Assembly: GCA_038872135.1 (NCBI GenBank)
Contig: JAVZGN010000001.1
Span: forward strand, 64,147 to 128,146
DNA length: 64,000 nt
Reading direction: 5' to 3'
From: Candidatus Hadarchaeales archaeon
Lineage (GTDB): Archaea; Hadarchaeota; Hadarchaeia; Hadarchaeales; Hadarchaeaceae
Shown here: piece by piece, positions 21,236-49,908 of the stretch
Layout of the letters: each line of letters opens with the position of its first letter
How positions within the stretch are numbered: the stretch's first letter is position 1
The notes under the pieces: model-generated
What the model was told of the DNA's origin: nothing
Database searches by the model: none
Seen by the model: only the letters and a program-made list of their open reading frames with translations
Position numbers and translations under genes: made by a program

Positions 21236-21245
21236 GCACCAGAAT

Positions 21246-22190: not shown

Positions 22191-22254
22191 ACCATCTCCT
22201 CCGCCTACAATTCAATTTCCAGCAAATGTCTAAATACCTACCGCAGATAGATAA

Positions 22255-23244: not shown

Positions 23245-23256
23245 CAGGAGAGCCAG

Positions 23257-24540: not shown

Positions 24541-25391
24541 AGCTCAAAGGGAAAGTTGCCATCGTCACGGGAGCGAGCAAGGGAATCGGGCGGTGTATCG
24601 CAGAGACCTTCGCCAGGGAAGGTTGCGCTCTGACAATAGTTTCCAGAAATCTAGAAGAGATAGCTGCTGCCGCGAAGGAAATGGGAAAATATGGGGCTGA
24701 TGTATTGGCTTTGAAATGTGATGTTTCGCGAGAGGAGGAGGTGAAAAAGATGGTGGACGCCACGATTGAAAAATTTGGAAAGATAGATATTCTCGTTAAC
24801 AATGCTGGGATTTACGGCCCGTTGGGTCCATTTGTAGGCAACTCTCTGGAGGAGTGGAAGCAGACAATTGAAATAAATCTTCTGGGAGTAGTCAACTGCA
24901 CAAAGTTCGTCCTCCCCCACATGATTGCTGCGAGAAAGGGCAAAATAATAAATCTTTCTGGCGGTGGCGCGGGGGGCCCCCCAACCCCAACTCTCAGCGC
25001 CTATTTCACATCAAAGGTTGCAGTAGTTGCATTCACAGAAATCCTCGCCGCAGAAGTGAAGGATTTTAACATTCAGGTAAATGCAATAGCCCCAGGAGCT
25101 GTAAACACAAGGTTGCTTGATCAAGTGCTGGCGGCTGCGGATAGAGTGGACAAGAAGTTTCTGGAAAAATCCATAAGGCAGAAGGAGACGGGCGGCACAC
25201 CTCCCCAGAAAGCCGCCGACCTTGCTCTCTTCCTAGCCTCAGATGAGTCGGACGGGATAACCGGCAAGCTTCTCAGCGCCGTCTGGGATGATTACAGGAG
25301 CTTTTCGCAGCTACCGCCAAGCGTCAGAGATTCCAGCATCTATACCCTCAGAAGAATCGATGGAAAATTTTTCAGAGAGGTTCAGCCATGA
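24537..25391 (+). CDS. Short-chain dehydrogenase/reductase (SDR)
   Basis: TGASKGIG cofactor motif, NNAG, YxxxK. Confidence 0.85.
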   Translation: MKLKGKVAIVTGASKGIGRCIAETFAREGCALTIVSRNLEEIAAAAKEMGKYGADVLALKCDVSREEEVKKMVDATIEKFGKIDILVNNAGIYGPLGPFVGNSLEEWKQTIEINLLGVVNCTKFVLPHMIAARKGKIINLSGGGAGGPPTPTLSAYFTSKVAVVAFTEILAAEVKDFNIQVNAIAPGAVNTRLLDQVLAAADRVDKKFLEKSIRQKETGGTPPQKAADLALFLASDESDGITGKLLSAVWDDYRSFSQLPPSVRDSSIYTLRRIDGKFFREVQP

Positions 25392-26371
25392 GGATTGGAA
25401 TAATCGGTGCTGGGCTGGTGGGGAGCAAGAGGGCGAAGGCGATTGGAGATCACCAACTCCTGGCCGTGGCAGATATAAATGAAAGCCGGGCGAGAGAGCT
25501 AGCTGCAGCTCATAGGTGCAGGTGGACAAAAGACTGGAAAGATGTTGTTGCAGATGATTCAATTGACCTGGTGATTGTTTCCACGACAAATGACTGGCTT
25601 GCACCGATTACAATTGAAGCAATCAAGAATGGAAAGCACGTCCTCGTAGAAAAGCCGGCTGCCAGAAACCCCCCAGAGCTTCAAAAAGTAATCGAGGTGG
25701 CGAAAAAACATCCAGAATTAAAGGTGAAGGTTGGGTTCAATCATAGATTTCACCCAGCCATTCAAAAGGCCAAGGAGATTTTTGAGAGCGGCAGGTTCGG
25801 CAGACTCATGTACATTCGGGGAAGGTATGGGCATGGAGGAAGAAAAGGCTATGAGAAGGAATGGCGGGCAAAACCAGAAATCGCGGGAGGTGGAGAAATG
25901 CTAGATCAGGGCATACACCTCGTGGACCTCTGCAGATGGTTCGGGGGGGATTTTGATGTGGCGATGGGATATTGCGCCACAATGTTCTGGGACATGGAGG
26001 TCGAGGATAACTGCTTTGCCCTTCTAAAAAATAAGAGGGGGGCGGTGGCATGGCTCCACGCCAGCTGGACTGAGTGGAAAAATCTTTTCTCCTTCGAAAT
26101 TTTTTGCGAGAGGGGGAAGCTGGAGATAAATGGACTTGGAGGAAGCTATGGTGAAGAGACCCTCACCTGCTATAAAATGAGACCAGAGTTTGGCGTCCCC
26201 GACAAAGAAGTTTTCTCCTGGAAGGGAGAGGATGTCTCTTGGAGGAAGGAATTAGAGCATTTTGTGGCGGCAATAGAAAAGAAAAAGCCAATTTCTGGCA
26301 CTCTTGAGGATGCCGCTGCGGCGATGAAGCTGATTTTCGACATCTACAGGTGGAGCAAAAAGCAGGGATGA
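25388..26371 (+). CDS. Gfo/Idh/MocA family oxidoreductase (sugar-nucleotide oxidoreductase-like)
   Basis: IGIIGAGLVGSKRA Rossmann; EKP motif (LVEKPAARN). Confidence 0.75.
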   Translation: MRIGIIGAGLVGSKRAKAIGDHQLLAVADINESRARELAAAHRCRWTKDWKDVVADDSIDLVIVSTTNDWLAPITIEAIKNGKHVLVEKPAARNPPELQKVIEVAKKHPELKVKVGFNHRFHPAIQKAKEIFESGRFGRLMYIRGRYGHGGRKGYEKEWRAKPEIAGGGEMLDQGIHLVDLCRWFGGDFDVAMGYCATMFWDMEVEDNCFALLKNKRGAVAWLHASWTEWKNLFSFEIFCERGKLEINGLGGSYGEETLTCYKMRPEFGVPDKEVFSWKGEDVSWRKELEHFVAAIEKKKPISGTLEDAAAAMKLIFDIYRWSKKQG

Positions 26372-27336
26372 TTTTTGTGAAAAGGAAAATTCCCGGGGTT
26401 CCAGTCCGCGATATTTCTCTTTCGGATGTTAATACCGTCGATGAAATAGTGAAAAAAATGTTTGAAGGTGGAGGTTTTGTGGCAAAAAATCTGGCGGTCG
26501 CAACGGACATCTTAGAAAAGATGGTCAAGGATGAGAAGTGCGTGAAATTTTTGTCATTTCCGGCGTGCATCATCGCTACAGGCTGCAGAGGAGTCGTAAA
26601 GGAGTTGGTCAAAAGAAAGCTTATGGATGTCCTGATCACCACTTGCGGAACGCTTGACCACGACCTGGCGAGGTGCTGGGGAGACTACTACCACGGGGAT
26701 TTTTCGGCAGACGACAGAAAACTAAAAAAAGAAAGAATCCATAGGCTCGGAAATGTCTTCGTGCCCGAGAAAAATTATGGATTGATTTTGGAGGAAAAGC
26801 TCCAGCCAATTTTCGAAGAAATCTGGAAAGAGAGAAAATCCATAGGGGGAAAGGATCTGATCTGGGAAATTGGGAAGAGGGTGAAAAACAAAGACTCCAT
26901 CCTTTACTGGGCCTGGAAAAATCAAATCCCAGTTTTCGTTCCCGGGATCTTCGATGGGGCAGTGGGAAGCCAGCTCTGGATGTTTTGGCAGTCCCACAGG
27001 GATTTCAGACTGCAGATGTTTGAGGATCAGCAGAATCTTGCAGACATTGTTTTCGGCGCTAAAAGAACCGGGGCGCTGATGATTGGAGGCGGCATAAGCA
27101 AGCATCACACGATGTGGTGGAATCAATTTCATGGTGGATTGGACTATGCCGTGTACATAACTACTGCTCCAGAGTGGGACGGGAGTCTAAGCGGAGCCAG
27201 GGTAAAAGAGGGAATTTCCTGGGGAAAAGTGAAACCAAATGCAAGGTTTGTTACGGTGGATGGGGATGCGACGGTTCTTCTTCCGATAATAGTGGCGGCC
27301 CTCCTCGAAAGGCTCAAAAGGAGGAGAATCAGGTAA
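26350..27336 (+). CDS. dys: Deoxyhypusine synthase
   Basis: Overall DHS pattern: ITTCGTLDHDL, ERIHRLGNVFVPEKNY, IGGGISKHHT, ~320 aa. Overlaps the upstream gene by 22 nt. Confidence 0.7.
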   Translation: MEQKAGMIFVKRKIPGVPVRDISLSDVNTVDEIVKKMFEGGGFVAKNLAVATDILEKMVKDEKCVKFLSFPACIIATGCRGVVKELVKRKLMDVLITTCGTLDHDLARCWGDYYHGDFSADDRKLKKERIHRLGNVFVPEKNYGLILEEKLQPIFEEIWKERKSIGGKDLIWEIGKRVKNKDSILYWAWKNQIPVFVPGIFDGAVGSQLWMFWQSHRDFRLQMFEDQQNLADIVFGAKRTGALMIGGGISKHHTMWWNQFHGGLDYAVYITTAPEWDGSLSGARVKEGISWGKVKPNARFVTVDGDATVLLPIIVAALLERLKRRRIR

Positions 27337-28408
27337 CCCAGATCGGAAGGGGTCTCCCTTCTTTTTTCATCTCTTCAATGACTTTCCTCGCGCTTTCTTT
27401 TTTTGTTCCAGCATTTCTTCTTATCTCTTGAATGCTTTCTTCGCCCATCGGGGAAATCTTCAATTCCCTAAATTTTATAGCAAAATCAAGCGCTTCTTTT
27501 CCACTCTCGGTCCTGACTATGAGTGTAGAATGCCCTTCGGGAGCTCCAGTAGCCCCAATGGAGATGTCGGCTAGCTCTGCCGAGAAATCCATGCAAACTC
27601 TGCAGGGCAAATCCACATATTTTCTTGCAACTGAAAGCGGTATCTCTCTGGTAGGCTTCATGGTCCTATAAATCAAAATTCTCCCATTTTTTATGTCGAA
27701 TTTATCTATTTCCAGAAGCGGGGTTTTCGTCTGTCCTTCCACAACTTCCACGAAAAAATCATATTTGAAAGCTTCGCGACAGAAGATCCCGATGCAGAGT
27801 TTCACTGCTTCTGAAAGCTGTCTGTTTGTTGGATTTGCCATCTGGATCTGTCTGACTGCGGCTATCTGACAGGGAAGCCCAACAATTGCCAATTTTTTCT
27901 TATAGAAGTGGCGAATGGCATCCAACAGTCCAGTTAAGAGCGGCCCCCGCACATACTTGCTCCCGGCAGCGTCAAGGAGTTCATCCCTCGTAGTTGCAAC
28001 AAATGGAGCCGGCATCCACCTCTCGCTTCCCATCCCCGTCACCACCGCCCCATCGACAAACTCATATTCAAGGAGAGTCCCGAGAAGTGAAGTGGCGGCC
28101 CCTCCATCCTGAGCTCTCTGAAGCAAATTTTGGTCCTCGGCTCTCGCGGAAAAGATCTCCAAATAGTTTCCTATCGCTGGATCCCCACTTTTACCGAAGA
28201 GTTTCACCTTTATCGATTCAAGCGATGCCGTCTGCGGACATCCCCCATAGCATATCCCACAGTTTATGCAAGTCCCGGTGAGAGCAGCCCTGTTTTCCCT
28301 GAGGCTCAGACACTGAACAGGACAGGAAGCAACGCATGCTCCACATCCCAAGCAAAGCTCACGGTTGGCGACATCCCCTTCAAGGTCTTTGAACGTTTTT
28401 ACCGTCAT
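27329..28408 (-). CDS. FrhB/FdhB-family (coenzyme F420 hydrogenase/dehydrogenase beta-like) protein with two N-terminal 4Fe-4S ferredoxin motifs
   Basis: CLGCGACVASCP and CINCGICYGGCP ferredoxin motifs followed by an FrhB-like N/C region. Confidence 0.6.
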   Translation of the reverse strand: MTVKTFKDLEGDVANRELCLGCGACVASCPVQCLSLRENRAALTGTCINCGICYGGCPQTASLESIKVKLFGKSGDPAIGNYLEIFSARAEDQNLLQRAQDGGAATSLLGTLLEYEFVDGAVVTGMGSERWMPAPFVATTRDELLDAAGSKYVRGPLLTGLLDAIRHFYKKKLAIVGLPCQIAAVRQIQMANPTNRQLSEAVKLCIGIFCREAFKYDFFVEVVEGQTKTPLLEIDKFDIKNGRILIYRTMKPTREIPLSVARKYVDLPCRVCMDFSAELADISIGATGAPEGHSTLIVRTESGKEALDFAIKFRELKISPMGEESIQEIRRNAGTKKESARKVIEEMKKEGRPLPIWVT

Positions 28409-29523
28409 GAAATTACCCGTGAATATCCATATCTCCTTTTGTCATAAAACGGTGGGGTTGTGATCTCTGCTCTGGCAAGTTTCCCCCTGATATCTATGAA
28501 GACTGTTTCCCCCTCTTTCAATCCAGCCGGAACATATCCCATCGCTATTCCAATTTTTAAAAGAGGTGAAAATGTCCCAGAAGTTACTTCCCCAATTTTC
28601 TCGTTATCTCTCATAATTGAGTACCCCTTCCGAGGAATCTCTCTTCCAGCCATCTTCAATCCAACTCTGAGTTTTTTCACCCCCCCTACCTTTTGGGAGA
28701 GAAGCGGCTCTTTCCCAATAAAATCTTTTTTGTCAAACTTCACCACGAACCCGAGCCCCGCTTCTAAAGGAGTGATGTCTTCACTCAGCTCATTCCCATA
28801 GAGGCAAAGCCCAGCCTCTATTCTCGTTGTATCTCTAGCTCCAAGCCCGCAGGGAAGGATCTCGCCAGCCCCGAGAATGGCCTTCCAGACTTTTTCAGCC
28901 CTCTCGGGAGCTTCCCGCGTGACATCCATCAAAAATATTTCAAAACCATCCTCCCCGGTATAGCCGGTCCTGCTGATGAGGGCTTTTTCACCGGCCACCT
29001 CCCCCCAAGCCGCCTTGAATCTTTTAACCTTGGAGAGGTCAATGGATGCGATTTTTTGAAGGAATTCTTGCGCTTTTGGCCCCTGCAACGCCAGGAGGAC
29101 TGTTGTCATCGTGATATCTTTCATTATTGCCTCTTTCGGCAGGTGCTGTTCAAACCATGAAACAATCTTCTCACGGTTGACGGCGTTGCACACAACTATG
29201 AATTTCTCTTCGCCCAGCCTGTAAACGAGGATGTCATCCTTCACCCCGCCCCTTTCGTTGAGGACTGTAGAGTACTGTGCATCGCCGGGCTGGAGCTTAG
29301 AAACATCATTTGAAGTCACCAGCTGAAGGAATTCCATAGCATTCTTCCCTTCCACAAGTATTTCCCCCATGTGGCTGACATCGAAGAGCCCGGCCTTTTC
29401 TCTCACCGCCATGTGCTCTTCTTGGATAGAGCTGAAGCTCATGGGGCATTCCCACCCAGCGAACTCCACCATCTTCGCTCCGCTTTCCCGGTGGACCCGA
29501 TCGAGCTGGAGAAGGTGCATCAA
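28405..29523 (-). CDS. gcvT: Glycine cleavage system T protein (aminomethyltransferase)
   Basis: LFDVSHMGEILVEGKNA, a typical GcvT N-terminal motif; ~370 aa. Confidence 0.85.
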   Translation of the reverse strand: MMHLLQLDRVHRESGAKMVEFAGWECPMSFSSIQEEHMAVREKAGLFDVSHMGEILVEGKNAMEFLQLVTSNDVSKLQPGDAQYSTVLNERGGVKDDILVYRLGEEKFIVVCNAVNREKIVSWFEQHLPKEAIMKDITMTTVLLALQGPKAQEFLQKIASIDLSKVKRFKAAWGEVAGEKALISRTGYTGEDGFEIFLMDVTREAPERAEKVWKAILGAGEILPCGLGARDTTRIEAGLCLYGNELSEDITPLEAGLGFVVKFDKKDFIGKEPLLSQKVGGVKKLRVGLKMAGREIPRKGYSIMRDNEKIGEVTSGTFSPLLKIGIAMGYVPAGLKEGETVFIDIRGKLARAEITTPPFYDKRRYGYSRVIS

Positions 29524-29589
29524 TTCCTGTCAAATGGAAAAAACTTAAATGTTTTTGTCATCATTTCGTGTGTCGAAGATTTGCTGAAG

Positions 29590-30771
29590 TCAAGAACTTT
29601 TCCTGCTCAACTGAAACTCAACACTTTCCTCGACAATGTCTTTTAAATTTAGGACTGGTCGCCATCCCGTCTTTTGGCAGAACTTAGAATTGTCCCCCAC
29701 GAACCCATGAATTAGCGCCCCGGGATACAGTTCATATGGCCTGAGTCCAGAGACATCGCAATAGATTTTTTCGCTTGGGATGTCGTACAGTCCACACGCG
29801 ATTTTGACAAAATCTCCGGTCAAAACCCCGCGACCAGAGCACACATTATATGGATTGTTTGGCTCACACTTTTCTGCGGCCAATAGATGCGCGTTGACAC
29901 TGTCTCTGACGTGAGTGAAATCCCGCAAGGAATTGGGATTTTGAATGATGATGCGATTACTCTTTCCCTTTTGGTAGGCTGCTATCTGCTTCGCCACCAC
30001 CATTGTAAAGAATCTATCGTCCCTCGCCCTTTTCATTTTCTTTGGATTCCCCACCCCTTCCTGGTTAAACGTCCTGATTTTTAGCACGGGGAGGCCATGG
30101 TTGTAAAAAAAGCTTTCCCCGATGTATTCCGTCGCTATTTTGCTGACGCTGTAGGGAGAAGTTGGCCTGAACGGCTGAGTTTCCTTTATGGGGAGCTCGT
30201 TTACCCCCATCACATACCCATATTGCTCAGATGATAGTGCAGTGTAAACCGTCTGAATGCTGTCCCCGGCATGTTTTGAGAGCGCCTTGAGCAGGTTTAT
30301 TGTTGACCCCACGTTGTTTTGGAAAACCAAGTTCGGTTCCTTTAGACTAGTTGGCACAAAAGATATCGCCGCATAGTGAAAGAGGATCTCCGGCTTTTCC
30401 TCCTTGATTATTTCATCGACATGGCCATAATCCATTAAGTCGCAGGCATGCAGCCTGATCGAGTTTTTTAAATCGCTTAGGTTTGGATATTTCTGTAATT
30501 CGGGGCTTTTCACGATACCCACCACCTCTGAACCGAGCTCGATTAGCCTCTCGACGAGGTTGCTACCGACGAACCCCCCAACGCCGGTAACCAGAACTTT
30601 TTTATTTTTCCAGAATTTCCGCCTGGGTGATGAAGACTTCAAATTTCTAGTCCGCTGATAGTCTTCCCAATTCTCATCATCGATCAAAATATTCTTTTCA
30701 TAGAGGGGGCGCAATTTTTGTTTTATGTCCATTTTTTTCATCACTTCGTCAAGGGGTTTTAATTTTGGCAT
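29590..30771 (-). CDS. NAD-dependent epimerase/dehydratase family protein (extended SDR with N-terminal extension)
   Basis: VLVTGVGGFVGSNLVERL motif; YxxxK. Confidence 0.75.
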   Translation of the reverse strand: MPKLKPLDEVMKKMDIKQKLRPLYEKNILIDDENWEDYQRTRNLKSSSPRRKFWKNKKVLVTGVGGFVGSNLVERLIELGSEVVGIVKSPELQKYPNLSDLKNSIRLHACDLMDYGHVDEIIKEEKPEILFHYAAISFVPTSLKEPNLVFQNNVGSTINLLKALSKHAGDSIQTVYTALSSEQYGYVMGVNELPIKETQPFRPTSPYSVSKIATEYIGESFFYNHGLPVLKIRTFNQEGVGNPKKMKRARDDRFFTMVVAKQIAAYQKGKSNRIIIQNPNSLRDFTHVRDSVNAHLLAAEKCEPNNPYNVCSGRGVLTGDFVKIACGLYDIPSEKIYCDVSGLRPYELYPGALIHGFVGDNSKFCQKTGWRPVLNLKDIVEESVEFQLSRKSS

Positions 30772-30888
30772 TTTCTCTAATTCTTAATCAGCCTAGACTT
30801 AAAAAGGGGATAAGTTCTCTACATTCGAGAACTCGGCCCAGATTGTGGAAAGTGAGGGATTAATACAACCAGCCGCAATATTCTACCG

Positions 30889-32046
30889 ATGGACTTCTGC
30901 TTTGTGGAAGAGGTCTTTCCGTACAAAAGGGATGGCGAGTTGGTGATGCAAACGGGTAGCGGAGCCCACGCATTCTTCTTAGCCAGAGAACTCACGAGAC
31001 GGGGGCATGAGGTGAGAATGGTATGTGGGAGAGTTCCAGGTACTCCGGCAAAAGAGGTGATCGATGGAATAGAGTTCAAGAGATATGGAGAGTATGTCCC
31101 ATGGTCCGAAAGACCGCCGGTGATAGGCGTTAAGAACGCTCTCCTCAACAATGTGGTTGGGCTGAGACTGCTAAATGAGGAGATAAAGCGCAAAAGGCCG
31201 GATTTTCTCGTCGCAGGCATGTCATTTTCAGCACCGAGAGCAATCTTTCTTTCAAAAATTCACAGGGTGCCATTTATCGCCGGGGTTTACGATCCAAACG
31301 ATTTGCGGTTGTATTTTAGGCATGTGGAGGGGACCATCTTAAACTTTCTCGGCGGAATCTACGTGTGGCTTTACACAATTATCCCAAAATATGCAGATCT
31401 CATCGAGACCCTTCTACCAACGACAATTCCAGAGCTGAGTGATAAATTTGGTATAGACGAGAAGAAGATATTTGCCACCGGGCATGGAGTAGACACGAGC
31501 AGATACAAATATTCAGAAGATAAGGAAAATCTTATAGCAGTAGTTGGCAGAATCACCCCCTATAAAAGAGTAGACATGGCGATAGAGATATTCAGGAGAG
31601 TTAGGGAAGAAATAAAAGATGCAAAGCTTGTTGTGATAGGTGGCGGTGAAGACAGAAAGCGCATAGAGGAACTGGTTCGCGGCGATGAAAGCATAAAGCT
31701 TGCGGGCATCCTGCCAGAAGATGAAAAGATAAGGATACTGAGGCGGAGCAAAATTCTCTTATCATGTTCGGAGTTTGAGGGTTTCGGGGTCCCGCCGATT
31801 GAGGCGCTCGCGTGCGGAGCAGTTCCGGTTCTCTCAGACATACCGGCGCACCGGGAAGTGATAAAGAACCACGGCTACATCTTTTCAAATGTTGACGATG
31901 CCGTCGATGAGATAGTCCGGCTTATGGCCGATGAAAAGAGGAGGAAGAAGATGGCTAGAAGAGGACGTGTTTTTGTTGAGTCGAACTACACTTGGTCAAA
32001 GGTTTGCGATAGATTTTTGGACGGCATAAGCCGATGGAACGGTTGA
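30889..32046 (+). CDS. Glycosyltransferase family 4 (GT-B)
   Basis: C-terminal EGFGVPPIEALACGAVPV retaining-GT4 signature. Confidence 0.8.
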   Translation: MDFCFVEEVFPYKRDGELVMQTGSGAHAFFLARELTRRGHEVRMVCGRVPGTPAKEVIDGIEFKRYGEYVPWSERPPVIGVKNALLNNVVGLRLLNEEIKRKRPDFLVAGMSFSAPRAIFLSKIHRVPFIAGVYDPNDLRLYFRHVEGTILNFLGGIYVWLYTIIPKYADLIETLLPTTIPELSDKFGIDEKKIFATGHGVDTSRYKYSEDKENLIAVVGRITPYKRVDMAIEIFRRVREEIKDAKLVVIGGGEDRKRIEELVRGDESIKLAGILPEDEKIRILRRSKILLSCSEFEGFGVPPIEALACGAVPVLSDIPAHREVIKNHGYIFSNVDDAVDEIVRLMADEKRRKKMARRGRVFVESNYTWSKVCDRFLDGISRWNG

Positions 32047-40924: not shown

Positions 40925-41911
40925 TTAATCTCTTCTCAGCTTTTTGCCCCATCTCGTCAGCTGTACGCGTTTACCGGCTCCAAAGCCAGTTCTCCTGATT
41001 ATCCCCTTTGCTTCCAGCCTTTTCATTGTGCGGGAGAGGGTGGCCTTTGGTATCCCGGTTCTCTCACAGATGGTCTTCTGGAGTAGGTTGTCTTCGCGCA
41101 GGAGCTCTTTGGTCACAGCTCTTTCGTGGTCGGTCAAGAGATTGAGGATTTTTTCAACGTCAGCAGAGCTAAGTGGTTCAGGTCTAGTCAGCTCCTGAGG
41201 AATCTCCACTTTTCTGCCAGCAGCCATCTTTACAAGGATTGCGAGAAGGATTGCTACTACAGCACCGATAGGAACGAGAGTCCAATAAGATCCTTCCTGT
41301 TGGGTCCCCTGGCTAGATTCGGAAGGGGCAGGAGGCGGGGAGGAAAGCTGGAAGGTCATCTCCGCCTGTAATCTACTTTCCGATATTCTCACCCATCTGA
41401 GAGATATCGAATCTCCCGAGGATGAGATAGATGAAGGTGAGGGTTCAGAGTGCAGGAGTTTTGCAAATTTTGGGAGAGTGACAGAGATTTTTGACAGCAT
41501 GGGGGAGGTCGTCCACTGGTATCCGATTGCATAGAAAAGCCCATTATCTGAGGCGATCACAGGTTTTGTCAGCTCAATGATTACAGTGTACCTTTCACCC
41601 TCCATCATCCCCGAGCTGAAGAAAAATTTGATCACAGCTGTGTTGTCTTCTCCTCTGTTTTCAAAAATTAAATTTCGGCCAGAATTGTCCCTGATGGAGA
41701 TGGTTGTGGGTCTCCCCATGACGATTATTTCATCCGAGACATTTTCTCCAGAGGCAACCATTGCATACTCGATGGAGATGATTTCCTTTGCAGAGTTTTC
41801 GCCGATTTCAATGGTAGATTCAGCCCAGGTTATCTGAAAAGTAGGCGCCGCTTTTACAGGGATGGTAAGCAGAAAGACAAGTAGCAGAGGAACAATTTTC
41901 TTTTCCATCAT
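40925..41911 (-). CDS. Membrane-spanning one-component regulator: signal peptide, ~200-aa extracytoplasmic domain, one TM helix, cytoplasmic winged-helix (MarR/TrmB-like) DNA-binding domain
   Basis: MMEKKIVPLLLVFLLTIPVKA signal sequence; TM WTLVPIGAVVAILLAILVKMAAG; C-terminal LLTDHERAVTKELLREDNLLQKTICERTGIPKATLSRTMKRLEAKGIIRR wHTH. Start is probably MMEKK rather than 41968. Confidence 0.6.
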   Translation of the reverse strand: MMEKKIVPLLLVFLLTIPVKAAPTFQITWAESTIEIGENSAKEIISIEYAMVASGENVSDEIIVMGRPTTISIRDNSGRNLIFENRGEDNTAVIKFFFSSGMMEGERYTVIIELTKPVIASDNGLFYAIGYQWTTSPMLSKISVTLPKFAKLLHSEPSPSSISSSGDSISLRWVRISESRLQAEMTFQLSSPPPAPSESSQGTQQEGSYWTLVPIGAVVAILLAILVKMAAGRKVEIPQELTRPEPLSSADVEKILNLLTDHERAVTKELLREDNLLQKTICERTGIPKATLSRTMKRLEAKGIIRRTGFGAGKRVQLTRWGKKLRRD

Positions 41912-42033: not shown

Positions 42034-45000
42034 ATGGCGATAAAAAGCTATTCATGGAGGAATGAAAAGGCACGGGGAGTTTTGTCTCTGCTACTGGTTC
42101 TAGCCCTCTTGGCTTCTCCAGTTGTTTCAGCTGATCACTCCAGCCAAATAACTTTGGAGCCAACGCTAACGCTCGATAATGTAATAACCCTGTATACAAT
42201 CGTGGTTACGAATACAGGCACCGCAGACAACATAGAAAATGTCAGGATATATGTTCCTGAAAACTTTACCTCTATCCAAGATAATGAAAATGCTGGCTGG
42301 ATTTACCTGTATGATGTTGCTTCCAGAACAATAACTTACTGGACAATGGACAATGCAAAAAAGATTGGCCCCGGCTCTAGTAAAATCTTCAAGTTCAAAG
42401 CCACAACCCCAAATCTTTCCTCCCCTCAGCCCCTTTACGTTAATTGGGCATTTTCAACAAAAGATAACTCAGGTTCTTTGTTTGAGGCACTCCCTGTTTC
42501 AGCCACGGTCGTCCCCGCAATGTTTGCATCCACGGGCCACACCGACAGCGGAATCGACGAGAACGGTGATAGCATTTACGAGTATCTTGGGGTGAATTTT
42601 AAGGTGGATGTCGCAACTCCTGGAAAATATTACGTGAGCGCCTCTTTATATGAGAATGAGAATTTCACATGGGTTTCGTGGGCCACCAGTGATCAACTCT
42701 TCCTAGCAGAAGGACAGCAGACAGTTCAGCTGAGATTCAAAAGCAGTGGAATATACAGGCTGAATAATCCGAGCGTCAACTTCCGGATCGAGGCATGGCT
42801 CTACAATGAAAACTGGTGGTACTTACATAACATCTCTTATATTACTGGTACATATTCTTCCGCCAGTTTTGCACCTCCACCTGTCATGTTTAATCCACCT
42901 CACTCTTTCACTCCACCATCGAGCCTGCCAGATTCCAACGGAAACTCATATGCTGACAACCTCCCGGTTAACGTCGGTGTAAAAGTTACGAAAGCCGGCT
43001 ACTACTGGATCCACGGATGGCTGAGCGAAAATGAAAGCGGATATTACATCACGTGGCTGGATTCGCAGAAGATTTATCTGTCCTCGGATACCACCCTCCA
43101 GCTGGCGTTCGACGGGTGCCGCATACGTCAGGCAAAGCGGTCAGGGTTCTACCGAGCGTACTTTAATATCTCTGATGAGAACTGGAACTGGCTTGACAGC
43201 AGTGAGGCAGTTTCAGACACTCAGTACTCTTGGGAGAATTTTGAGCCGCCGGCGGCAAGCTTCAATCCACCCCACAGCTTCGCGATGATAGACAACGACA
43301 AAGACAACAAATTCGACTATCTTGCGGTTGATGTTAAGCTGAGGGTTAACGTCCCGGGGAGGTACTGGCTGAGTGGCAGCTTGTATGAAAATATAACTGG
43401 AAGCTACGTCACATATATGGAGTCAACTTCGCTATCAGCAAACACAGCAGGCCAATACACTGTTCGGGTGCTGTTCGATGGTACGAGAATTCGATCGTCT
43501 GGGATCTCGGGCCACTACAGGGTCGACATGTCGTTATACGATGGCAACTGGAACTGGCTCGAAAGTGATAGCTATGTGGTGGAGAATTACTATTCGTCGG
43601 ATAACTTCGAGCCACTCGGGGCAACGATCACGTCTGTGTACAGCGACGTTGAAGATCTCAACAACAACCAAAAATTCGATTCACTATTAGTGATAGTCAA
43701 TCTAGATGTCAACAAGGCTGGAAATTATTCCGCCCATGGCTATCTTTCAGACAGCAACTGGACGTACGTCGGCTGGAGCCGCGGTGAGAATTATCTGAGT
43801 GGTAATGGGCAAATAACGGTGAGATTTGATGGCAGGGAGATAAGGAAGGCACGCGCAAATGGTCCCTACCAGGTTTACATTTCTCTTTATGAGAAGGATA
43901 CCGGCACGTATCTTGAAGGTTATTCGGGAGGAGTCGGCGCAGACTATTCATGGGAAGACTTCGAGCCCCAAGCGGCTGAAATCCTTTCTGTGGAGTATGG
44001 TGGAACCGAGGACACGAACGGGAACGGGTTTAAGGATTTTCTAGTGGTGAACGTGGTTGAAAATGTAAATGCCGCCGGGTGGTACAGGGTCGGTGGGAAC
44101 CTCTTTGACAATGAGAACTATATGTGGCTTGGCTGGGCAGAAAATTACGTTTACCTGCCAATAGGCGTCCAGACGGTGCAACTAAGACTTGATGGTTCCA
44201 GAATAAGGAAAGCGGGGATTTCCGGCGGTTACAAGGCCTCAGTTTCTTCATACGATGAGTATTGGAATTGGCTTGGGTGGATGGAGAATAATTTGGGGCA
44301 ATTTAATTGCCAAGATTTCGAACCAGGCGGCGTCGAGATACTCTCAATAGTGACATTTGGTGAAAATACCGACGAAGACAGCTACTTCAACTACTTGGTA
44401 GAGAATGTTAATTTAAAGGTAAACAAGCCAGGGAAATACAGGATAACTGCCAATCTCAGGAAGGACTGGAAGTGGATAGATGGGGCTTGGTCTGAGAATG
44501 ATTTGACGACGGACACAACGGTTCAGCTGCGGTTCAGCGGAAGAAATATTTATTCATCAAGGGAAAACGGCCCATATACCTTGGAGGTATGGATTTCCGA
44601 TGAAATGTGGAACCCAGTTACAGATAATTCTGTAGAAGTTGGTGCAGAGTTCACGTATGAAAATTTCCAGCGTCCACCAGCCGTCATCGCTTCAACCGGG
44701 CACACGGACGAAGGAATAGATACAAACAACAATGAGAATTTTGATTTTCTCTACATAGACGTAAAGGTGAATGTTGCCACACCGGGAAAATATCGCCTGA
44801 GCGGTTCTCTCTTCGACAATAACTGGATGTGGATCGACTGGGCAGAGAACATTGTAACATTGGATGCTGGAGTTGGAAAGAGTGTTGGGCTTTCATTTGG
44901 CGGTTACCGCATCCGCAACTCTGGGAGAAGCGGCCCATACATTGTTGAGCTGTTCTTGGATGAGGTAAAAGAAATGGAACCGTTCAGGCCATGGATACCG

Positions 45001-47622
45001 GCGATGGAGAGGACAGTTTACACCACCCGGGCATACATCCCGGAGAACTTTGAAACCGCACCAATAGAATTTCTGCCGTCATTCACGGAGAATGTTGTGG
45101 ACGAGGATGGAGGAGGATATGACTATTTGACTGTAAATGTGAGCGTTAAGGTCACCACTGAAGGAAGATACTACATTGGGGGATCGCTGTTTACCAGCCC
45201 ACTCATTCAGAAAAATATGCCTCCAAGATCGCCTGTTTGGATTACATGGGCGAGCACTGAGGTGGACCTTACGCCCGGGGTTCATTCAATCCCGCTGAGG
45301 TTTAGAGGAGCAGATATAAACAGAAGCGGAGAAAATGGCCCCTATCGGGCAGATATCAATATCTCAGGCTTTGTCGGTGGAAGATGGGATTGGTTTGGGT
45401 CTACCACCTACATCACGGCAGCATACTTTAGTACTCAGTTCAATCCTCCGCCTGTTGTTATCCTTCCGCCGCCCCACGCAGATTACGGTTACGACTCCGA
45501 TGGTGACAATCTGTATGACTTTATAGTGGTGAGGTTCAAGGTGGATGTGAACAAAGCTGGCAGGTATATAATCGGAGGGGATCTTTGGCCGGCAGGGCAT
45601 GCGATGGAGGAAAAGCAGCTAGGGGTTGGTGTTCAGACGGTGGAACTCCGCTTCTCAGCTTCCAAGATTTATGCAAACAAAACGAATGGACCCTACTGGG
45701 CATACTTCAGCATCATGGATGAAAACTGGAAGCCGCTTGGTTGGGGAAATCACCAGACCGGCAATTATAGATACGACCAGTTTGATCCTCCGCGGGTAGG
45801 GCTGGTCCGGCAGGGTCTTGTCTCATCATCTCCAATGGTCCCGCCGCAGGTGAAGATTTCGGACACAGGCATAAACATAGATCCAGAGAACGATAATCTC
45901 TACGATTTCCTGAAGGTGGATGTGAGCGTTAAGGTCATGGAAAATGGGGTCTACACCGTGATGGGGGCGCTATTTGCACAGAACATAGCTGGGAGTCCAC
46001 CCATCGACTGGGCCGAAAATAGACTGACGCTGAGGACCAGCGATAACACTGTTACCCTCCTCTTTAGTGGGTATGGGGTGGTTCAATCTAGGGTGAACGG
46101 CAAAATATACATTGGGCTGGCTATTCTCGATGAGAACGGTGTGTGGCTAGATACTGAGATTACACCCACGAACGCCTCTTATTCTTATGAGCAGTTTGAG
46201 AACACAAAGAGGGCGCGCTTCGCTATAGTCGCAGGGAAATCTGTCCGGCCAAGCGCTGCAGGTGAAACAGTTTTGGTGAATCTAGAAAACACAGATGCTG
46301 AATCGGTTACTGAAGTTGAGTTGAGGGCCAAAAATAACAGGTCGTCGGCCTCGGTCATAAACATAACCGAGCATGAAGAAGCACCTCTCGGGACAAAAGA
46401 CATTACTGGGGAAGAGCTCAAGTATTTCGACATCACGGTTTCAGATGCGCAGAACATAGAAAGCGCCATTATTCATTTCAAGATTCCGAAATCTGTGGTT
46501 AGCCAGCAGAACATCGATGTTAGCACGATAAGACTCAGGCGGGAAAATATTTTAACCGGTACCACAGTTGAGCTGGAAACATGGTTAGAGGGTGAAGATG
46601 CGAATTACTACTACTTCTCGGCCAGAACTCCAGGATTCTCGTTCTTCGTGGTGGTGGGGCAGCTGAGACAGCCTTCACCACCCCCGCCATCCCCAGGACC
46701 ACCCACAGTTGGCCCCTCTCCAGCGACTTTTGAGTTCAGTGTCTTTGAAGTTCCGGATGTTATAAAGATAGGCGAGAAGGCAGTCATAAGCTTTACTATA
46801 AAGAACACTGGGGGGACGGCCGGGACTTACACTGTGATTCTCTCGCTGGACAATGTTGTTCTAGAGAGCAGGACGATAACGCTGGCTCCAGGTGAGAACC
46901 AGCGGGTAAGCTTTGAAGTTATCCCGCCGGCTATAGGGACATTTCTCATTCAAATTGCTGGGCAGACTGCAGAACTCACAGTGCTGCCAGAGTTGATCGT
47001 TTCTCAAGATCTTGTGGCGGTGAGCTTGGAGCCCATTTACATAGACAGGATTTCCGTTGAAACCCCGCTAACACTGAGCTTCACAGAAACTGCGATAACC
47101 AAGTTGACCCTCAGCGTCTGGAAAGAAGTTTCTGGAGTTATTCTGAAGATAAAGCAGTTGAAAGCCCTTCCATCCGAGGTTCCGGTCCCGGAAACACCAG
47201 TTTTTACATACCTTGAAATCACGGCCGAGAAGCTTCCAAGCTCAGACATAAACAATGCTCTGATTTCATTCAAGGTTGAGAAATCCTGGGTAATAAGTGA
47301 AAATATAGCAGAAAATGAGATAGCGCTCCTAAGATATCACTCCGGCGAATGGCAAAAGCTCAGGACAGAGAAACTCGGCGAAGATGATAGATATCTTTAC
47401 TTCACTGCCATCTCCCCAGGCTTCTCAATCTTTGCTATATCTGGGGAAAGGGCGGCTGCCATAACTCCACCCGGCGTTACGCCGACCCTTCCAACCCAGC
47501 CGTTTGCCCCGATACCGTCAATATATCTTGTGGCGATAACAGCGCTGATATTAATTGGTGTAATTCTGGCGGTGGTCTGGAGGTACATCTCTCTAGGAAC
47601 GAAGAGGCTACCAGTGGAGTGA
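42034..47622 (+). CDS. Giant secreted surface protein (1862 aa): signal peptide, DUF11-like N-domain, ten tandem ~115-aa repeats, two PGF-pre-PGF-like domains, a CARDB-like domain, and a C-terminal TM anchor
   Basis: Signal peptide ~aa 1-33. TVTNTG-type DUF11 motif at aa 55-62. Repeats ending in ...YDENWNWL...FEPP (aa ~165-1390). Pro-rich linker PSPPPPSPGPPTVGPSP. CARDB-like TIKNTGGTAGTYTVIL. Two copies of ...YFSARTPGFSFFVV / ...YFTAISPGFSIFAI. C-terminal hydrophobic IYLVAITALILIGVILAVVW followed by RYISLGTKR. Confidence 0.8.
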   Translation: MAIKSYSWRNEKARGVLSLLLVLALLASPVVSADHSSQITLEPTLTLDNVITLYTIVVTNTGTADNIENVRIYVPENFTSIQDNENAGWIYLYDVASRTITYWTMDNAKKIGPGSSKIFKFKATTPNLSSPQPLYVNWAFSTKDNSGSLFEALPVSATVVPAMFASTGHTDSGIDENGDSIYEYLGVNFKVDVATPGKYYVSASLYENENFTWVSWATSDQLFLAEGQQTVQLRFKSSGIYRLNNPSVNFRIEAWLYNENWWYLHNISYITGTYSSASFAPPPVMFNPPHSFTPPSSLPDSNGNSYADNLPVNVGVKVTKAGYYWIHGWLSENESGYYITWLDSQKIYLSSDTTLQLAFDGCRIRQAKRSGFYRAYFNISDENWNWLDSSEAVSDTQYSWENFEPPAASFNPPHSFAMIDNDKDNKFDYLAVDVKLRVNVPGRYWLSGSLYENITGSYVTYMESTSLSANTAGQYTVRVLFDGTRIRSSGISGHYRVDMSLYDGNWNWLESDSYVVENYYSSDNFEPLGATITSVYSDVEDLNNNQKFDSLLVIVNLDVNKAGNYSAHGYLSDSNWTYVGWSRGENYLSGNGQITVRFDGREIRKARANGPYQVYISLYEKDTGTYLEGYSGGVGADYSWEDFEPQAAEILSVEYGGTEDTNGNGFKDFLVVNVVENVNAAGWYRVGGNLFDNENYMWLGWAENYVYLPIGVQTVQLRLDGSRIRKAGISGGYKASVSSYDEYWNWLGWMENNLGQFNCQDFEPGGVEILSIVTFGENTDEDSYFNYLVENVNLKVNKPGKYRITANLRKDWKWIDGAWSENDLTTDTTVQLRFSGRNIYSSRENGPYTLEVWISDEMWNPVTDNSVEVGAEFTYENFQRPPAVIASTGHTDEGIDTNNNENFDFLYIDVKVNVATPGKYRLSGSLFDNNWMWIDWAENIVTLDAGVGKSVGLSFGGYRIRNSGRSGPYIVELFLDEVKEMEPFRPWIPAMERTVYTTRAYIPENFETAPIEFLPSFTENVVDEDGGGYDYLTVNVSVKVTTEGRYYIGGSLFTSPLIQKNMPPRSPVWITWASTEVDLTPGVHSIPLRFRGADINRSGENGPYRADINISGFVGGRWDWFGSTTYITAAYFSTQFNPPPVVILPPPHADYGYDSDGDNLYDFIVVRFKVDVNKAGRYIIGGDLWPAGHAMEEKQLGVGVQTVELRFSASKIYANKTNGPYWAYFSIMDENWKPLGWGNHQTGNYRYDQFDPPRVGLVRQGLVSSSPMVPPQVKISDTGINIDPENDNLYDFLKVDVSVKVMENGVYTVMGALFAQNIAGSPPIDWAENRLTLRTSDNTVTLLFSGYGVVQSRVNGKIYIGLAILDENGVWLDTEITPTNASYSYEQFENTKRARFAIVAGKSVRPSAAGETVLVNLENTDAESVTEVELRAKNNRSSASVINITEHEEAPLGTKDITGEELKYFDITVSDAQNIESAIIHFKIPKSVVSQQNIDVSTIRLRRENILTGTTVELETWLEGEDANYYYFSARTPGFSFFVVVGQLRQPSPPPPSPGPPTVGPSPATFEFSVFEVPDVIKIGEKAVISFTIKNTGGTAGTYTVILSLDNVVLESRTITLAPGENQRVSFEVIPPAIGTFLIQIAGQTAELTVLPELIVSQDLVAVSLEPIYIDRISVETPLTLSFTETAITKLTLSVWKEVSGVILKIKQLKALPSEVPVPETPVFTYLEITAEKLPSSDINNALISFKVEKSWVISENIAENEIALLRYHSGEWQKLRTEKLGEDDRYLYFTAISPGFSIFAISGERAAAITPPGVTPTLPTQPFAPIPSIYLVAITALILIGVILAVVWRYISLGTKRLPVE

Positions 47623-47624
47623 GG

Positions 47625-48869
47625 TCACCTTTTGACCAGTTCCTCCATCTCCATAAACAGCTTCTTAAGGTAGAGATATATGAGATAACCCAAGCAAATG
47701 ACTCCGAAAATAAACATCAGCGATTGCAGGGCCATTCCTCCCTCAGGCCAGAAATGCTCCATCACCGTTCCAGGCTGGACAATGTTGTATAGGCCATGAA
47801 AGAGAATCAGCCCAAAAACATTTCTCGTCCTGTAGTAGGCTATCCCCCACCACAGGGCAATCAAGAAGAGTCCTCCGAGGAAAAAGATACCAGTTGGGCC
47901 AAAGGAAAGGTACCAGAGGTGGAGGGAAGCAAAGAGCGCTGCACTGGCGGCTATTGCTTTGGTCCCTCCGAGCACAGACAGCCTCTCTATCATGAAACCC
48001 CGGAAAACTATTTCTTCTGTGAAAGCAACCGGGAAGAAGAAGGCAAAGCCAAGATAAATGAAATACCAGTCGGCCGAGGCTCCAAAGAACCCCCGCATCA
48101 TTGATTCTGGATTTGCTCCAACAAAAAGCTGCACAACGCTCCAGTAGAAGTAGATGATCACGGTGAAAATTACTGAAAGGGCGAAAACCCAGATGACGCT
48201 GTCGAGCATTTTTTCCCGCTTCACCCCGACAGATGGCCAGAACTTCCTCCCCTCAAACCTAGTTGTGTGGAGGTAGGCTATAGCAAGGGCTGTTGTGAAA
48301 GTTACAGCGTGAGAGAGGACATCGGAGATCTCTCTCCCAGTTCTCCACCGCAGAACCCACGCCGTTTCCACATTCTCCCCTGTGGCGTTGTCAACCATCA
48401 GAAGTTCATGAAAGCCATATGAAAGATTTTCAACGCTTAGGACCACCGGCACCGGTTTATTTTCTCCAGCCTTTAGAGCAACACTGAAATCAGCTCTGGC
48501 ATCGCCAAGTTTTAGGGAATACATCTTTGCCACAGAATTTTCCGAGAGGTTCGAGAAATTGACTGTAATAATTGACAGCAAATTTTCATAGATTGTCATG
48601 GGCTCGTGGTTTTCCACTATATAGATGAGAAGATTATCAATGGGAGGAGGTGCATTTTCCATTTCATAAACAGAAATGGCCTCGCTGCCGTAGGCTGATG
48701 CAACAACGCTGGCAAAAAGCATAGCGCTGAGGACGCAGATGTAAACCACTAACGGCCCAAGCCACCACGGCTCTTTTCCTAGAGCCGGTTTTTCGGTGGG
48801 TCTCGGCAACGGTTTTTTCACAGTTTTCCCGCTACTTTTGGCAGGCATTCGATTTAGATTTGGCATCAT
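47625..48869 (-). CDS. CPBP-family (CAAX protease/Abi) intramembrane metalloprotease with an N-terminal TM plus ~130-aa extracytoplasmic domain
   Basis: CPBP motifs EEIVFR (motif 1), FASLH (motif 2), HGLYN (motif 3) within a polytopic C-terminal half. Confidence 0.7.
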   Translation of the reverse strand: MMPNLNRMPAKSSGKTVKKPLPRPTEKPALGKEPWWLGPLVVYICVLSAMLFASVVASAYGSEAISVYEMENAPPPIDNLLIYIVENHEPMTIYENLLSIITVNFSNLSENSVAKMYSLKLGDARADFSVALKAGENKPVPVVLSVENLSYGFHELLMVDNATGENVETAWVLRWRTGREISDVLSHAVTFTTALAIAYLHTTRFEGRKFWPSVGVKREKMLDSVIWVFALSVIFTVIIYFYWSVVQLFVGANPESMMRGFFGASADWYFIYLGFAFFFPVAFTEEIVFRGFMIERLSVLGGTKAIAASAALFASLHLWYLSFGPTGIFFLGGLFLIALWWGIAYYRTRNVFGLILFHGLYNIVQPGTVMEHFWPEGGMALQSLMFIFGVICLGYLIYLYLKKLFMEMEELVKR

Positions 48870-48885
48870 ACCTTATAATAGACTT

Positions 48886-49908
48886 TCAAAGGGGAACTTC
48901 TTTTGCCATGGTTACGGCAAGGGTCGCCATCTTTGCATAGAAGTTGTCGTCGGCCTGCTCATAGATTACAGAGTTGGGCGAGTCCACTGCATCGTCTGCT
49001 GCTTCTTCGTTTCTCATCACAGGGAGGACGTGGGTCATTATCGCGGGTTTTGCCATGAGGTCGTCGATGTGACGCTTTTCCAGCCTCCAGTTTTTGTACT
49101 TTTGGTAAATTGCTACTTCTCTGTCAACTCCGAATTTCGATGCCCCGACCCGCAGAAACTCTGATGTCCCCCAGCTCCTGGGAAAGACGACATTTGCTCC
49201 CTTCAGCCCCTCCTCGAAGTCATTGACTATTTCAAAGCTTCCTCCAGCATCTTTAGCGTTTTTCTTTGCAGTTTCAACGATTTTCGGGTCGATGTCAAAG
49301 CCCGGTGGGTGGGCCAGCGTCACATCCATCCCAAATCTAGTTGCTATCAGGACTTCTTCCTGAATACTGCAGCGTCCGCGGGGTTTGCTGGAGTATGCCC
49401 AAGTTATTGTGTATTTTTTCCCGCTCAGATTTCCAAGCTTCTTCCTTATCGTCCAGATATCTCCAAGTCCCTGGGTGGGATGGTATGTGCAGTCGGCCAT
49501 GTTGATCACTGGTTTGTCGGAGGCTTCAGCAAACTCCTTCACCACTTTTAACCCAGCCCCATAGACATAGTCAATTGCCTTGTCGAGGATTCTCACACCT
49601 ATTCCATCGCCATAGGAGGCATACATGTGAGCGGTGTCCTTCACTGCTTCTTCCATCCTCGTCGTTGAAACATCGATGAAGGCTGGGTGTCCTCCGAGAA
49701 TCGCAGTTGCGGCCTCAAATGCTCCCCTGGTTCTGGTAGAAGGCGCGTAGAAAATCATGAAGAAATTTTTGCGGTCGAGGATCCTTGGTGGCCTATCTCC
49801 CCTTTTGACTATCTTCTGAAGTTTTTCCGCCACTTTTATCGTGTACTCCAGTTCTTCGATGCTCCAGTCCTGCGTAGTTATGAAATCTCTTCCATAGAGC
49901 TCAACCAT
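48886..49908 (-). CDS. Aspartate/ornithine carbamoyltransferase-family protein (specificity unclear)
   Basis: STRTR carbamoyl-phosphate motif and HPTQ motif; lacks the canonical OTCase HCLP motif. Confidence 0.6.
   Translation of the reverse strand: MVELYGRDFITTQDWSIEELEYTIKVAEKLQKIVKRGDRPPRILDRKNFFMIFYAPSTRTRGAFEAATAILGGHPAFIDVSTTRMEEAVKDTAHMYASYGDGIGVRILDKAIDYVYGAGLKVVKEFAEASDKPVINMADCTYHPTQGLGDIWTIRKKLGNLSGKKYTITWAYSSKPRGRCSIQEEVLIATRFGMDVTLAHPPGFDIDPKIVETAKKNAKDAGGSFEIVNDFEEGLKGANVVFPRSWGTSEFLRVGASKFGVDREVAIYQKYKNWRLEKRHIDDLMAKPAIMTHVLPVMRNEEAADDAVDSPNSVIYEQADDNFYAKMATLAVTMAKEVPL

Follow-up and report, generated by a model that had tools for sequence, protein, structure and literature searches.

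A 64-kb stretch of a Candidatus Hadarchaeales contig (64,000 nt, herein the window; positions are counted from its first nucleotide) contains a giant gene (42034..47622, + strand, from the list of open reading frames [ORFs] and their translations) for a surface protein of 1862 aa that is predicted to be secreted and C-terminally anchored. The protein combines two copies of a known domain, PGF-pre-PGF (NCBIfam TIGR04213), with a conserved C-terminal tail that is probably a new anchor or sorting signal, and its gene adjoins one for a CPBP intramembrane protease, a candidate processing enzyme. Taking our best explanation as a whole, the product is likely a giant, Sec-exported, type-I anchored cell-surface protein. 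From N to C terminus it would comprise a signal peptide, an N-terminal domain, ten DUF4785_3rd-like repeats, PGF-pre-PGF domain #1, a Pro-rich linker, a CARDB-like Ig domain, PGF-pre-PGF domain #2, a short linker, and the conserved C-terminal anchor. An identical 1862-aa gene is called in a second Candidatus Hadarchaeales assembly (GCA_038883755.1), which shares the whole gene neighborhood; orthologs are 48% identical over their full length and have the same layout. Homologous proteins and loci are cited below by P and L numbers, respectively.

The two PGF-pre-PGF domains

The first-pass annotation had described two segments near the C terminus as PGF-pre-PGF-like, and comparison with TIGR04213 shows both to be bona fide members of the family, with a match far beyond chance. 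On the whole protein the model (PGF_pre_PGF; curated cut-off, 28 bits) scores 162.1 bits (E = 9.3e-48) over two stretches; scanned separately, the segments give 70.2 bits (aa ~1419-1542) and 106.9 bits (aa ~1671-1804). Domain #1, the internal copy, spans aa ~1393-1543 (46210..46662, +), and domain #2, the membrane-proximal copy with a predicted GAIN_B-like β-sandwich, spans aa 1655-1805 (46996..47448, +). They are 26% identical to each other in an alignment of 19 PGF-pre-PGF domains from the window and its homologs (A2). Both resemble the family in scoring above its cut-off, in possessing its terminal PGF-S-x-F, and in having closest homologs that bear the same name; they differ in that there are two copies per protein, one of them internal, and no PGF-CTERM signal downstream.

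Each domain ends in a Pro-Gly-Phe-Ser (P-G-F-S) motif, and neither motif is C-terminal, as had been noted at first pass: by translation they occupy aa 1533-1536 (46630..46641, +; context ...ANYYYFSARTPGFSFFVVVGQ and ...NYYYFSARTPGFSFFVVV) and aa 1795-1798 (47416..47427, +; context ...DRYLYFTAISPGFSIFAISGE and ...RYLYFTAISPGFSIFAIS) of the 1862 residues. Both TIGR04213 alignments reach the final profile position (153/153), at ...TPGFSFF and ...SPGFSIF, so PGFSxF is the end of the domain model itself. All 19 domains of A2 have Ser144 (the residue after PGF) and Phe146, and conservation is 90% or more at Pro141 and Gly142. The giant genes of L030 and L031, and likewise P0050 and P0057, have an internal copy that lacks the Pro and Gly (...AETDSFSWFVVIG and ...AQTSSFSWFGIS) and keeps F-S; the membrane-proximal copy in these same orthologs retains the full PGFS.

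In an archaeosortase signal, which sits at the very C terminus, PGF leads directly into a transmembrane (TM) helix and then a basic cluster. In the window's protein the PGF tripeptides lie 327 and 65 residues from the C terminus. The first is followed by FFVVVGQLRQPSPPPP / SFFVVVGQLRQPSPPPP, with neither a TM helix nor a basic cluster, and the second by SIFAISGERAAAITPPG, in which residues 145-150 (A2 numbering) form a β-strand in the structural model (predicted local distance difference test [pLDDT] ~97). Because neither TM helix nor basic cluster follows, the internal PGF motifs are not archaeosortase signals, and annotators should not take a PGF tripeptide within a TIGR04213 domain for an archaeosortase site. 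The likeness to the PGF-CTERM/ArtA system extends to an archaeal surface protein with a C-terminal TM helix, basic residues, and PGF tripeptides; the difference is that PGF here is far from the C terminus and leads into a β-strand, and that the real tail has no PGF.

What follows the PGF-pre-PGF domain varies among homologs. In those from Methanosarcinales the same domain is succeeded by a ~50-aa low-complexity linker and then by a genuine PGF-CTERM (SPGFE...hydrophobic...KRK), an arrangement that explains the name of the family. Among 24 homologs, 8 have PGF-CTERM after such a ~50-aa linker and another 8 have a plain TM helix with basic residues, so a non-PGF anchor after this domain is common and not unusual. 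A literature search for PGF-pre-PGF returned incidental mentions only.

Predicted fold and likeness to GAIN and MAIN domains

The AlphaFold2 model of domain #2, computed from A2 (pLDDT, 94.4; predicted template-modeling score [pTM], 0.87), is all-β, with 12 strands and one helix. DSSP assigns strands to residues 133-140 (RYLYFTAI) and 145-150 (IFAISG, the last one), and SPGF (residues 140-143) is the turn that joins them. In this model PGF appears to be a tight P-G turn leading into the final β-strand (S-x-F-A-I), and the two strands to form a hairpin built into a globular domain; a P-G pair is a standard β-turn former. As a hairpin turn the motif is without the architecture of an archaeosortase signal, and its place in the fold resolves the puzzle of PGF motifs in the interior of the protein.

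A Foldseek search of the model against the PDB returned GAIN domains of adhesion G protein-coupled receptors at ranks 1-4, 9, and 28. The top match is BAI3 (4dlo_B; E = 2.6e-4, probability 1.00, template-modeling score 0.52 normalized to the query), and the other GAIN matches are BAI2 (8oek), CD97 (9mqr_A and 8ikj), and CELSR1 (8vy2_A). The predicted fold of domain #2 is thus assigned to the GAIN_B-type β-sandwich, with a moderate strength of likeness. Pfam Peptidase_S68, the family of the H-F-S autoprocessing protein PIDD, matches 1 of the 19 PGF-pre-PGF domains weakly (E = 0.006).

GAIN-like "MAIN" domains encoded by bacteria and archaea were described by Brogan & Rudner in a preprint of May 2026 (bioRxiv 10.64898/2026.05.12.724683). 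GAIN and MAIN domains self-cleave at H-x-S/T (H-L|T in GAIN) in the turn between the last two strands; in Bacillota MAIN domains Edman sequencing placed the cut at H-F|S, the substitution S1346A abolished it, and the cleaved fragments remain associated. MAIN domains stand directly before the cell-surface anchor, behind large adhesive or enzymatic ectodomains. Table S3 of that preprint includes many methanogen proteins, from Methanolobus (13 mentions), Methanosarcina, Methanococcoides, Methanoculleus, and Methanoregula, in which β-helix or PKD domains are followed by a C-terminal domain labeled ZU5 or GPS by DPAM; PGF-pre-PGF or TIGR04213 is unmentioned in its main text and in the parts of its supplements that were searched (bioRxiv 10.64898/2026.05.12.724683). 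The architectures of the TIGR04213 matches P0010, P0012, P0016, P0019, and P0020 equal those of the methanogen proteins in this table. By this analogy we infer that TIGR04213 would be the archaeal branch of the MAIN family.

The PGF-pre-PGF domains share with GAIN and MAIN domains the β-sandwich of the best PDB fold matches, a conserved x-F/L-S motif where the final two strands meet in a turn, and a place just ahead of a membrane or surface anchor and behind a large adhesive ectodomain. In the window's protein 24 residues separate the end of domain #2 from the TM helix, and upstream of it lies an ectodomain of 1650 aa with a signal peptide, domain #1 being internal. The differences are that the general-base His is here Gly, that the helical GAIN_A subdomain is missing, and that the anchor is a TM helix, as opposed to the LPXTG or SLH anchors of MAIN proteins. 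Domains of the SEA/SEAL type offer a further comparison, since they too are membrane-proximal within large surface proteins. Where they cleave, the cut lies within a β-turn ahead of a Ser and no His is needed; they differ in their fold and in their motif (G|SVVV, with Gly at -1), and no structural match to them turned up here.

Several observations weigh against the GAIN/MAIN assignment. It comes from one predicted model, for which a single Foldseek match has E ≤ 1e-3, with the query-normalized score of 0.52 given above, and the A2 profile matched nothing significant among PDB sequences. The H-x-(S/T) motif is replaced by G-F-S, the His position being Gly in at least 90% of the 19 domains, and a non-cleaving role of the P-G turn explains the conservation of P-G-F-S equally well. 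A His equivalent is needed for cleavage in GAIN, ZU5, and Nup98 autoprocessing; with Ser and the -1 Phe kept but the catalytic His changed to Gly, cleavage is at most possible. From the position of GAIN, MAIN, and SEA domains before an anchor, the membrane-proximal PGF-pre-PGF domain may serve as a juxtamembrane stalk or breakpoint module. The comparison would tie a long-unexplained domain to a family of force-sensitive, self-cleaving juxtamembrane domains, and it exposes a natural His-to-Gly variant at the cleavage turn whose competence for cleavage is directly testable.

A different juxtamembrane domain (A4) is fused directly to the same C-terminal tail in carriers without TIGR04213, and ends in ...LVSIP[H/G/S/A/Y/R]F[S/T]xxTITI; the alignment comprises P0051-P0054, P0059, P0062, P0065, P0067, P0068, P0072, P0074, P0075, and P0079. 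A P-H-F-S version, which resembles the H-F|S cleavage motif of MAIN, occurs in half of the aligned members. The AlphaFold2 model of A4 (pLDDT, 80) has two helices and a β-sandwich; Foldseek found no GAIN match for it, the best hits being generic glycosidase β-sandwiches (E = 0.011), and hhalign between the PGF-pre-PGF alignment A2 and A4 gave no homology (probability 0.7%). Despite P-H-F-S, we do not claim A4 as a GAIN-like domain, as neither a GAIN fold match nor profile homology was found.

The C-terminal tail and the adjacent CPBP gene

The last 47 residues of the giant protein, TPTLPTQPFAPIPSIYLVAITALILIGVILAVVWRYISLGTKRLPVE, comprise a single hydrophobic helix with a basic tail and lack PGF, in agreement with the first-pass description of the true C terminus. 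This tail module (aa 1816-1862; 47479..47619, +) has the signature TLPTQPFAPIPSIY, a TM helix at aa ~1830-1849, and the sequence WRYISLGTKR, and the protein closes with ...WRYISLGTKRLPVE. The C-terminal helix would hold the giant protein in the membrane. In the four closest relatives the tail is identical nearly residue for residue.

A profile built from three tails recovered held-out tails at E ≤ 2.5e-12 (with the Z of the library) in a local control. Searched with HMMER against 1.84e9 cluster representatives at E ≤ 1e-3, it matched 33, of which 31 have the match no more than 25 aa from the C terminus and one within 27, the remaining one being a spurious repeat protein. The alignment of the tails (A5) defines three parts: the motif (T)(L/M)-P-T-x-P-x4-P-(P/S)-x-(Y/W), with P in 32/33, T in 31/33, P in 33/33, P in 32/33, and Y/W in 27/33; about 17 hydrophobic residues; and W-R-Y-x-S-x-G-x-(K/R), with W in 32/33, R in 32/33, Y in 29/33, S in 24/33, and G in 26/32. 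No sorting-signal model of NCBIfam or Pfam matched the tails above noise; TIGR04126 (PGF-CTERM) in particular gave no match, its best being two of the 33 tails at a noise-level E = 0.28. A protein search with a six-tail alignment returned one noise match and missed the controls P0001 and P0002, and is not counted as a negative. Metagenome contigs were scanned with the single pattern [VI][VI]WRY[IV]S[LI]G, which matched two orthologous loci; with one pattern the family is undercounted there.

The tail occurs on diverse proteins. Besides the DUF4785_3rd giants, P0069 and P0073 carry it together with a TIGR04213 domain; carriers without TIGR04213 have Big_1/Invasin_D3, Beta_helix/NosD, or Glucodextran_B domains (P0051, P0054, P0065, P0072, and P0075), and further carriers are the PENW-rich proteins P0056 and P0061 and the PKD protein P0077. 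Collinearity with the window (protein identity, 46-69%) places the locus of P0061 (L028) in a related Hadarchaeota genome. P0069 comes from a metagenome-assembled genome (MAG) that NCBI labels Candidatus Hodarchaeaceae (Asgard), and its apgM is 34% identical to the L028 copy.

At the level of primary structure, the tail is shown to be a separate, modular, tripartite element on unrelated ectodomains, with or without a PGF-pre-PGF domain; by the same comparisons it is distinct from PGF-CTERM and not a decayed form of it. The near invariance of P-T-x-P...P-P and W-R-Y-x-S-x-G over unrelated ectodomains in two lineages implies recognition by a partner, and WRYxSxG, more elaborate than the plain basic cluster in known signals, suggests that this partner is specific. 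Most likely the tail serves as an anchoring or sorting signal specific to the lineage, with a dedicated partner that recognizes it. A point against this reading is that, among orthologous giants, the tail (57-64%) is little better conserved than the C-terminal half of the protein (50-65%). Among the three options raised at first pass, an alternative anchoring route is the best supported, the tail being modular, C-terminal, and present on unrelated ectodomains. If it is a sorting signal, this probably new and uncatalogued module would mark the surface proteome of uncultured Hadarchaeota, and possibly of an Asgard lineage, and would point to a new processing enzyme; a hidden Markov model (HMM) of the tail would improve annotation at once.

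The gene that adjoins the giant gene encodes a CPBP (Rce1-like) glutamic intramembrane protease of 407 aa (47625..48848, -), as first annotated: PF02517 scores 56.4 bits (cut-off, 22.4), and the translation has all three catalytic motifs intact (EExxxR as TEEIVFR, FxxxH as FASLH, and HxxxN as HGLYN). It is identical to P0025, a CPBP family intramembrane glutamic endopeptidase of Candidatus Hadarchaeales, and has about 22 orthologs. The two genes are convergent; in the window 2 bp separate their stop codons, and in L020/L031 the genes overlap. An aspartate/ornithine carbamoyltransferase gene (48886..49908, -; Pfam OTCace_N and OTCace) lies directly upstream of the CPBP gene across a 37-bp gap.

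Eight distinct CPBP loci could be compared: the window (= L016/L017), L001, L018/19, L020/21, L022/24, L023, L030, and L031. A carbamoyltransferase gene stands directly upstream on the same strand in all eight, if a 340-aa ORF of matching strand and place in L023 is taken to be this gene; that a metabolic enzyme and an intramembrane protease should be so constantly paired (47625-49908) was unexpected. A tail-bearing giant gene lies directly downstream, convergent, at seven of the eight loci, and the outer flanks vary between loci; L018/19 retains the carbamoyltransferase and CPBP genes, and its protein of 1349 aa is unrelated and has no tail. Tail-bearing genes that adjoin no CPBP gene occur in L025, L027, L028, and L029. 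A scan of genome contigs with the CPBP protein found distant, unrelated bacterial and archaeal CPBPs and no ortholog.

Myxosortase-type CPBP systems are the nearest precedent. They resemble the present one in a tripartite C-terminal signal (motif, TM helix, and basic cluster), in a CPBP encoded beside the carrier protein, and in a CPBP with a lineage-specific N-terminal domain and a conserved core. They differ in orientation, which is convergent here, and in their signals: a Cys is invariant in those acted on by the known sorting enzymes MrtX, MrtJ, MrtS, and the archaeal MrtA (bioRxiv 10.1101/2023.06.07.544157), and a Cys is present in 1 of 33 tails and absent from the window's. The window's CPBP is also far below the cut-offs of the Mrt models (MrtJ, 21.3 bits against 75; Mrt_core, 18.4 bits against 100).

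How much of this is processed, and by what, can be read in several ways. It is quite possible that nothing is: the PGF-pre-PGF domains would be inert stalks and the tail an ordinary, uncleaved type-I TM anchor, conserved by ancestry and exon-like shuffling. The absent catalytic His fits such a view, as do the ordinary 20-residue hydrophobic helix with basic residues after it, the plain TM anchors that end many TIGR04213 proteins, and a tail conservation among orthologs that barely exceeds that of neighboring domains; the two near-invariant tail motifs, shared across ectodomains and lineages, go beyond the needs of a generic anchor, and the Ser after PGF is invariant. We hold it possible, if doubtful, that the PGF-pre-PGF domains are autoproteolytic, being cut at F1535|S1536 and/or F1797|S1798 into fragments that stay non-covalently associated, so that force would shed the ectodomain. 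Such cleavage would be consistent with a GAIN_B-like model that has the motif in the turn between its last two strands, with an invariant Ser and a conserved -1 Phe or Leu in the 19 domains, and with a match to the MAIN site H-F|S at two of three positions in a domain (#2) that has the same pre-anchor position. It also accords with the archaeal methanogen proteins of like architecture in the MAIN homolog set, and with A4 on the same tail, whose ending ...IP[H/G/S/A/Y/R]F[S/T]... has His in 5 of 10 aligned members. Set against this, the -2 His is Gly in nearly all TIGR04213 domains, a standard relaxed P-G β-turn accounts for the conservation without catalysis, the domains tested in the preprint include no archaeal one, and A4 has neither detectable homology nor a GAIN-like fold. 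The earlier proposal that internal PGF motifs mark processing sites therefore falls for archaeosortase and survives as a possible self-cleavage turn of a predicted GAIN-like fold.

That the tail is a cleaved sorting signal with the adjacent CPBP as its dedicated enzyme, a Cys-independent analog of myxosortase (MrtX/MrtA/MrtJ), we consider unlikely. The tripartite tail on unrelated proteins argues for it, as do the intact catalytic motifs, the precedent of CPBP sorting that includes archaeal MrtA for CGP-CTERM (bioRxiv 10.1101/2023.06.07.544157), and a convergent adjacency that persists at seven of eight loci though CPBP identity drops to 37% and the outer flanks differ; tail genes remote from CPBP (L025, L028, and L029) fit one enzyme with several substrates. 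Against it stand a Cys that is invariant in each of the four CPBP-sorted signals known, the low Mrt scores, the convergent genes, which are not cotranscribed, and the carbamoyltransferase gene as the constant same-strand partner of CPBP. In addition, L018/L019 keeps CPBP and its partner in the absence of a tail protein, the tail carrier of the Hodarchaeaceae-labeled MAG has no CPBP gene within 10 kb, and all CPBP loci come from one lineage, in which synteny may simply be inherited. The suggestion made at first pass that CPBP is a candidate processor thus gains from adjacency and loses by orientation, the carbamoyltransferase partner, the Cys-free tail, and the tail genes elsewhere. Improbable, too, is the full combination: a new C-terminal sorting system in Hadarchaeota and at least one Hodarchaeaceae-labeled (Asgard) MAG, with an LPTxP-x4-PPxY/TM/WRYxSxGxK signal, CPBP processing, self-cleaving GAIN-like modules, and force-shed ectodomains; if true, it would be the first Cys-independent CPBP sorting system.

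We regard as very unlikely the remaining reading, also raised at first pass, of a degenerate PGF-CTERM or other archaeosortase-family signal whose enzyme is encoded elsewhere in the genome. The tail does bear P-(P/S)-x-(Y/W) directly before the TM helix, and Pro motifs in that position (PGF, PEF, PEP, and VPXXXP) are typical of exosortase/archaeosortase signals, as Haft et al. reportedly noted in 2012; Methanosarcinales homologs of the same domain have a true PGF-CTERM. The lack of a TIGR04126 match, a signature conserved in its own right, and a cytoplasmic WRYxSxG motif foreign to archaeosortase signals leave the degenerate-signal option without support. Six multi-TM proteins are encoded in the window (an ABC-2-like permease, SecY, EMC3, CPBP, MarC, and ArsB; EMC3, CPBP, MarC, and ArsB named from Pfam, ABC-2 and SecY from sequence reading or the annotations of other loci), and none is artA. 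No product of the Hadarchaeota loci examined matched the exosortase Pfam, and a literature search for an archaeosortase in Hadarchaeota or Hadesarchaea found nothing.

Remaining protein architecture and neighboring genes

Upstream of the PGF-pre-PGF domains the giant protein begins with a Sec-type signal peptide (aa 1-33; 42034..42132, +), read from the sequence as a basic n-region, an LLLVLALLA core, and VSA|D; the hydrophobic segment begins at aa 12. Ten tandem β-sandwich repeats of ~120 aa (aa 160-1389; 42511..46200, +) were delimited with an iterated internal HMM, each at E ≤ 1e-40, and are DUF4785_3rd-like, Pfam PF20943 matching one of them (aa 423-498) at 76 bits. After the Pro-rich linker, a CARDB/Ig-like domain (aa ~1565-1650; 46726..46983, +) has a weak Pfam HYDIN/VesB Ig match (aa 1577-1637, E = 0.029); the orthologs P0001, P0002, and L022 have a precomputed PF07705 CARDB annotation. 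The idea of an S-layer glycoprotein was set aside, the protein having only 16 N-x-S/T sequons in its 1862 aa.

The giant gene varies between loci. In L017 (GCA_038874375.1, 3823-9217), where the CPBP protein is identical, it is split into ORFs of 1264 and 509 aa, a frameshift or assembly difference relative to the window and L016. In L001 (2632-6117; Hadarchaeota MAG GCA_040757795.1) a tandem pair of tail-bearing giant paralogs lies upstream of the CPBP gene; the second paralog has long Ser/Thr/Ala-rich inserts within its repeats and a single PGF-pre-PGF domain.

Divergent from the giant gene is one for a membrane-anchored winged-helix (MarR/TrmB-type) regulator of 327 aa (40925..41908, -; MarR_2, 37.7 bits), with a signal peptide, an ectodomain of ~200 aa, and a single TM helix; its winged helix is cytoplasmic. 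Homologs at 30-36% identity adjoin tail-bearing surface-protein genes in L022 and in L029, there with an unrelated ectodomain, and L031 has a MarR_2 gene of the same size in the same position. The regulator may be a membrane-tethered controller of tail-bearing surface-protein genes.

Farther upstream, 19128-32046 holds a nucleotide-sugar and glycan cluster with two UDP-glucose/GDP-mannose dehydrogenases, an NTP transferase, two epimerase/dehydratases, a GHMP kinase, a GFO/IDH/MocA oxidoreductase, and a GT4 glycosyltransferase, which may supply glycans for surface proteins; a deoxyhypusine synthase gene is embedded in it. Next to this cluster, tRNA-Lys(CUU) (18993-19089, +) is 97 nt long as against 78 nt for tRNA-Glu, so an archaeal intron is probably present.

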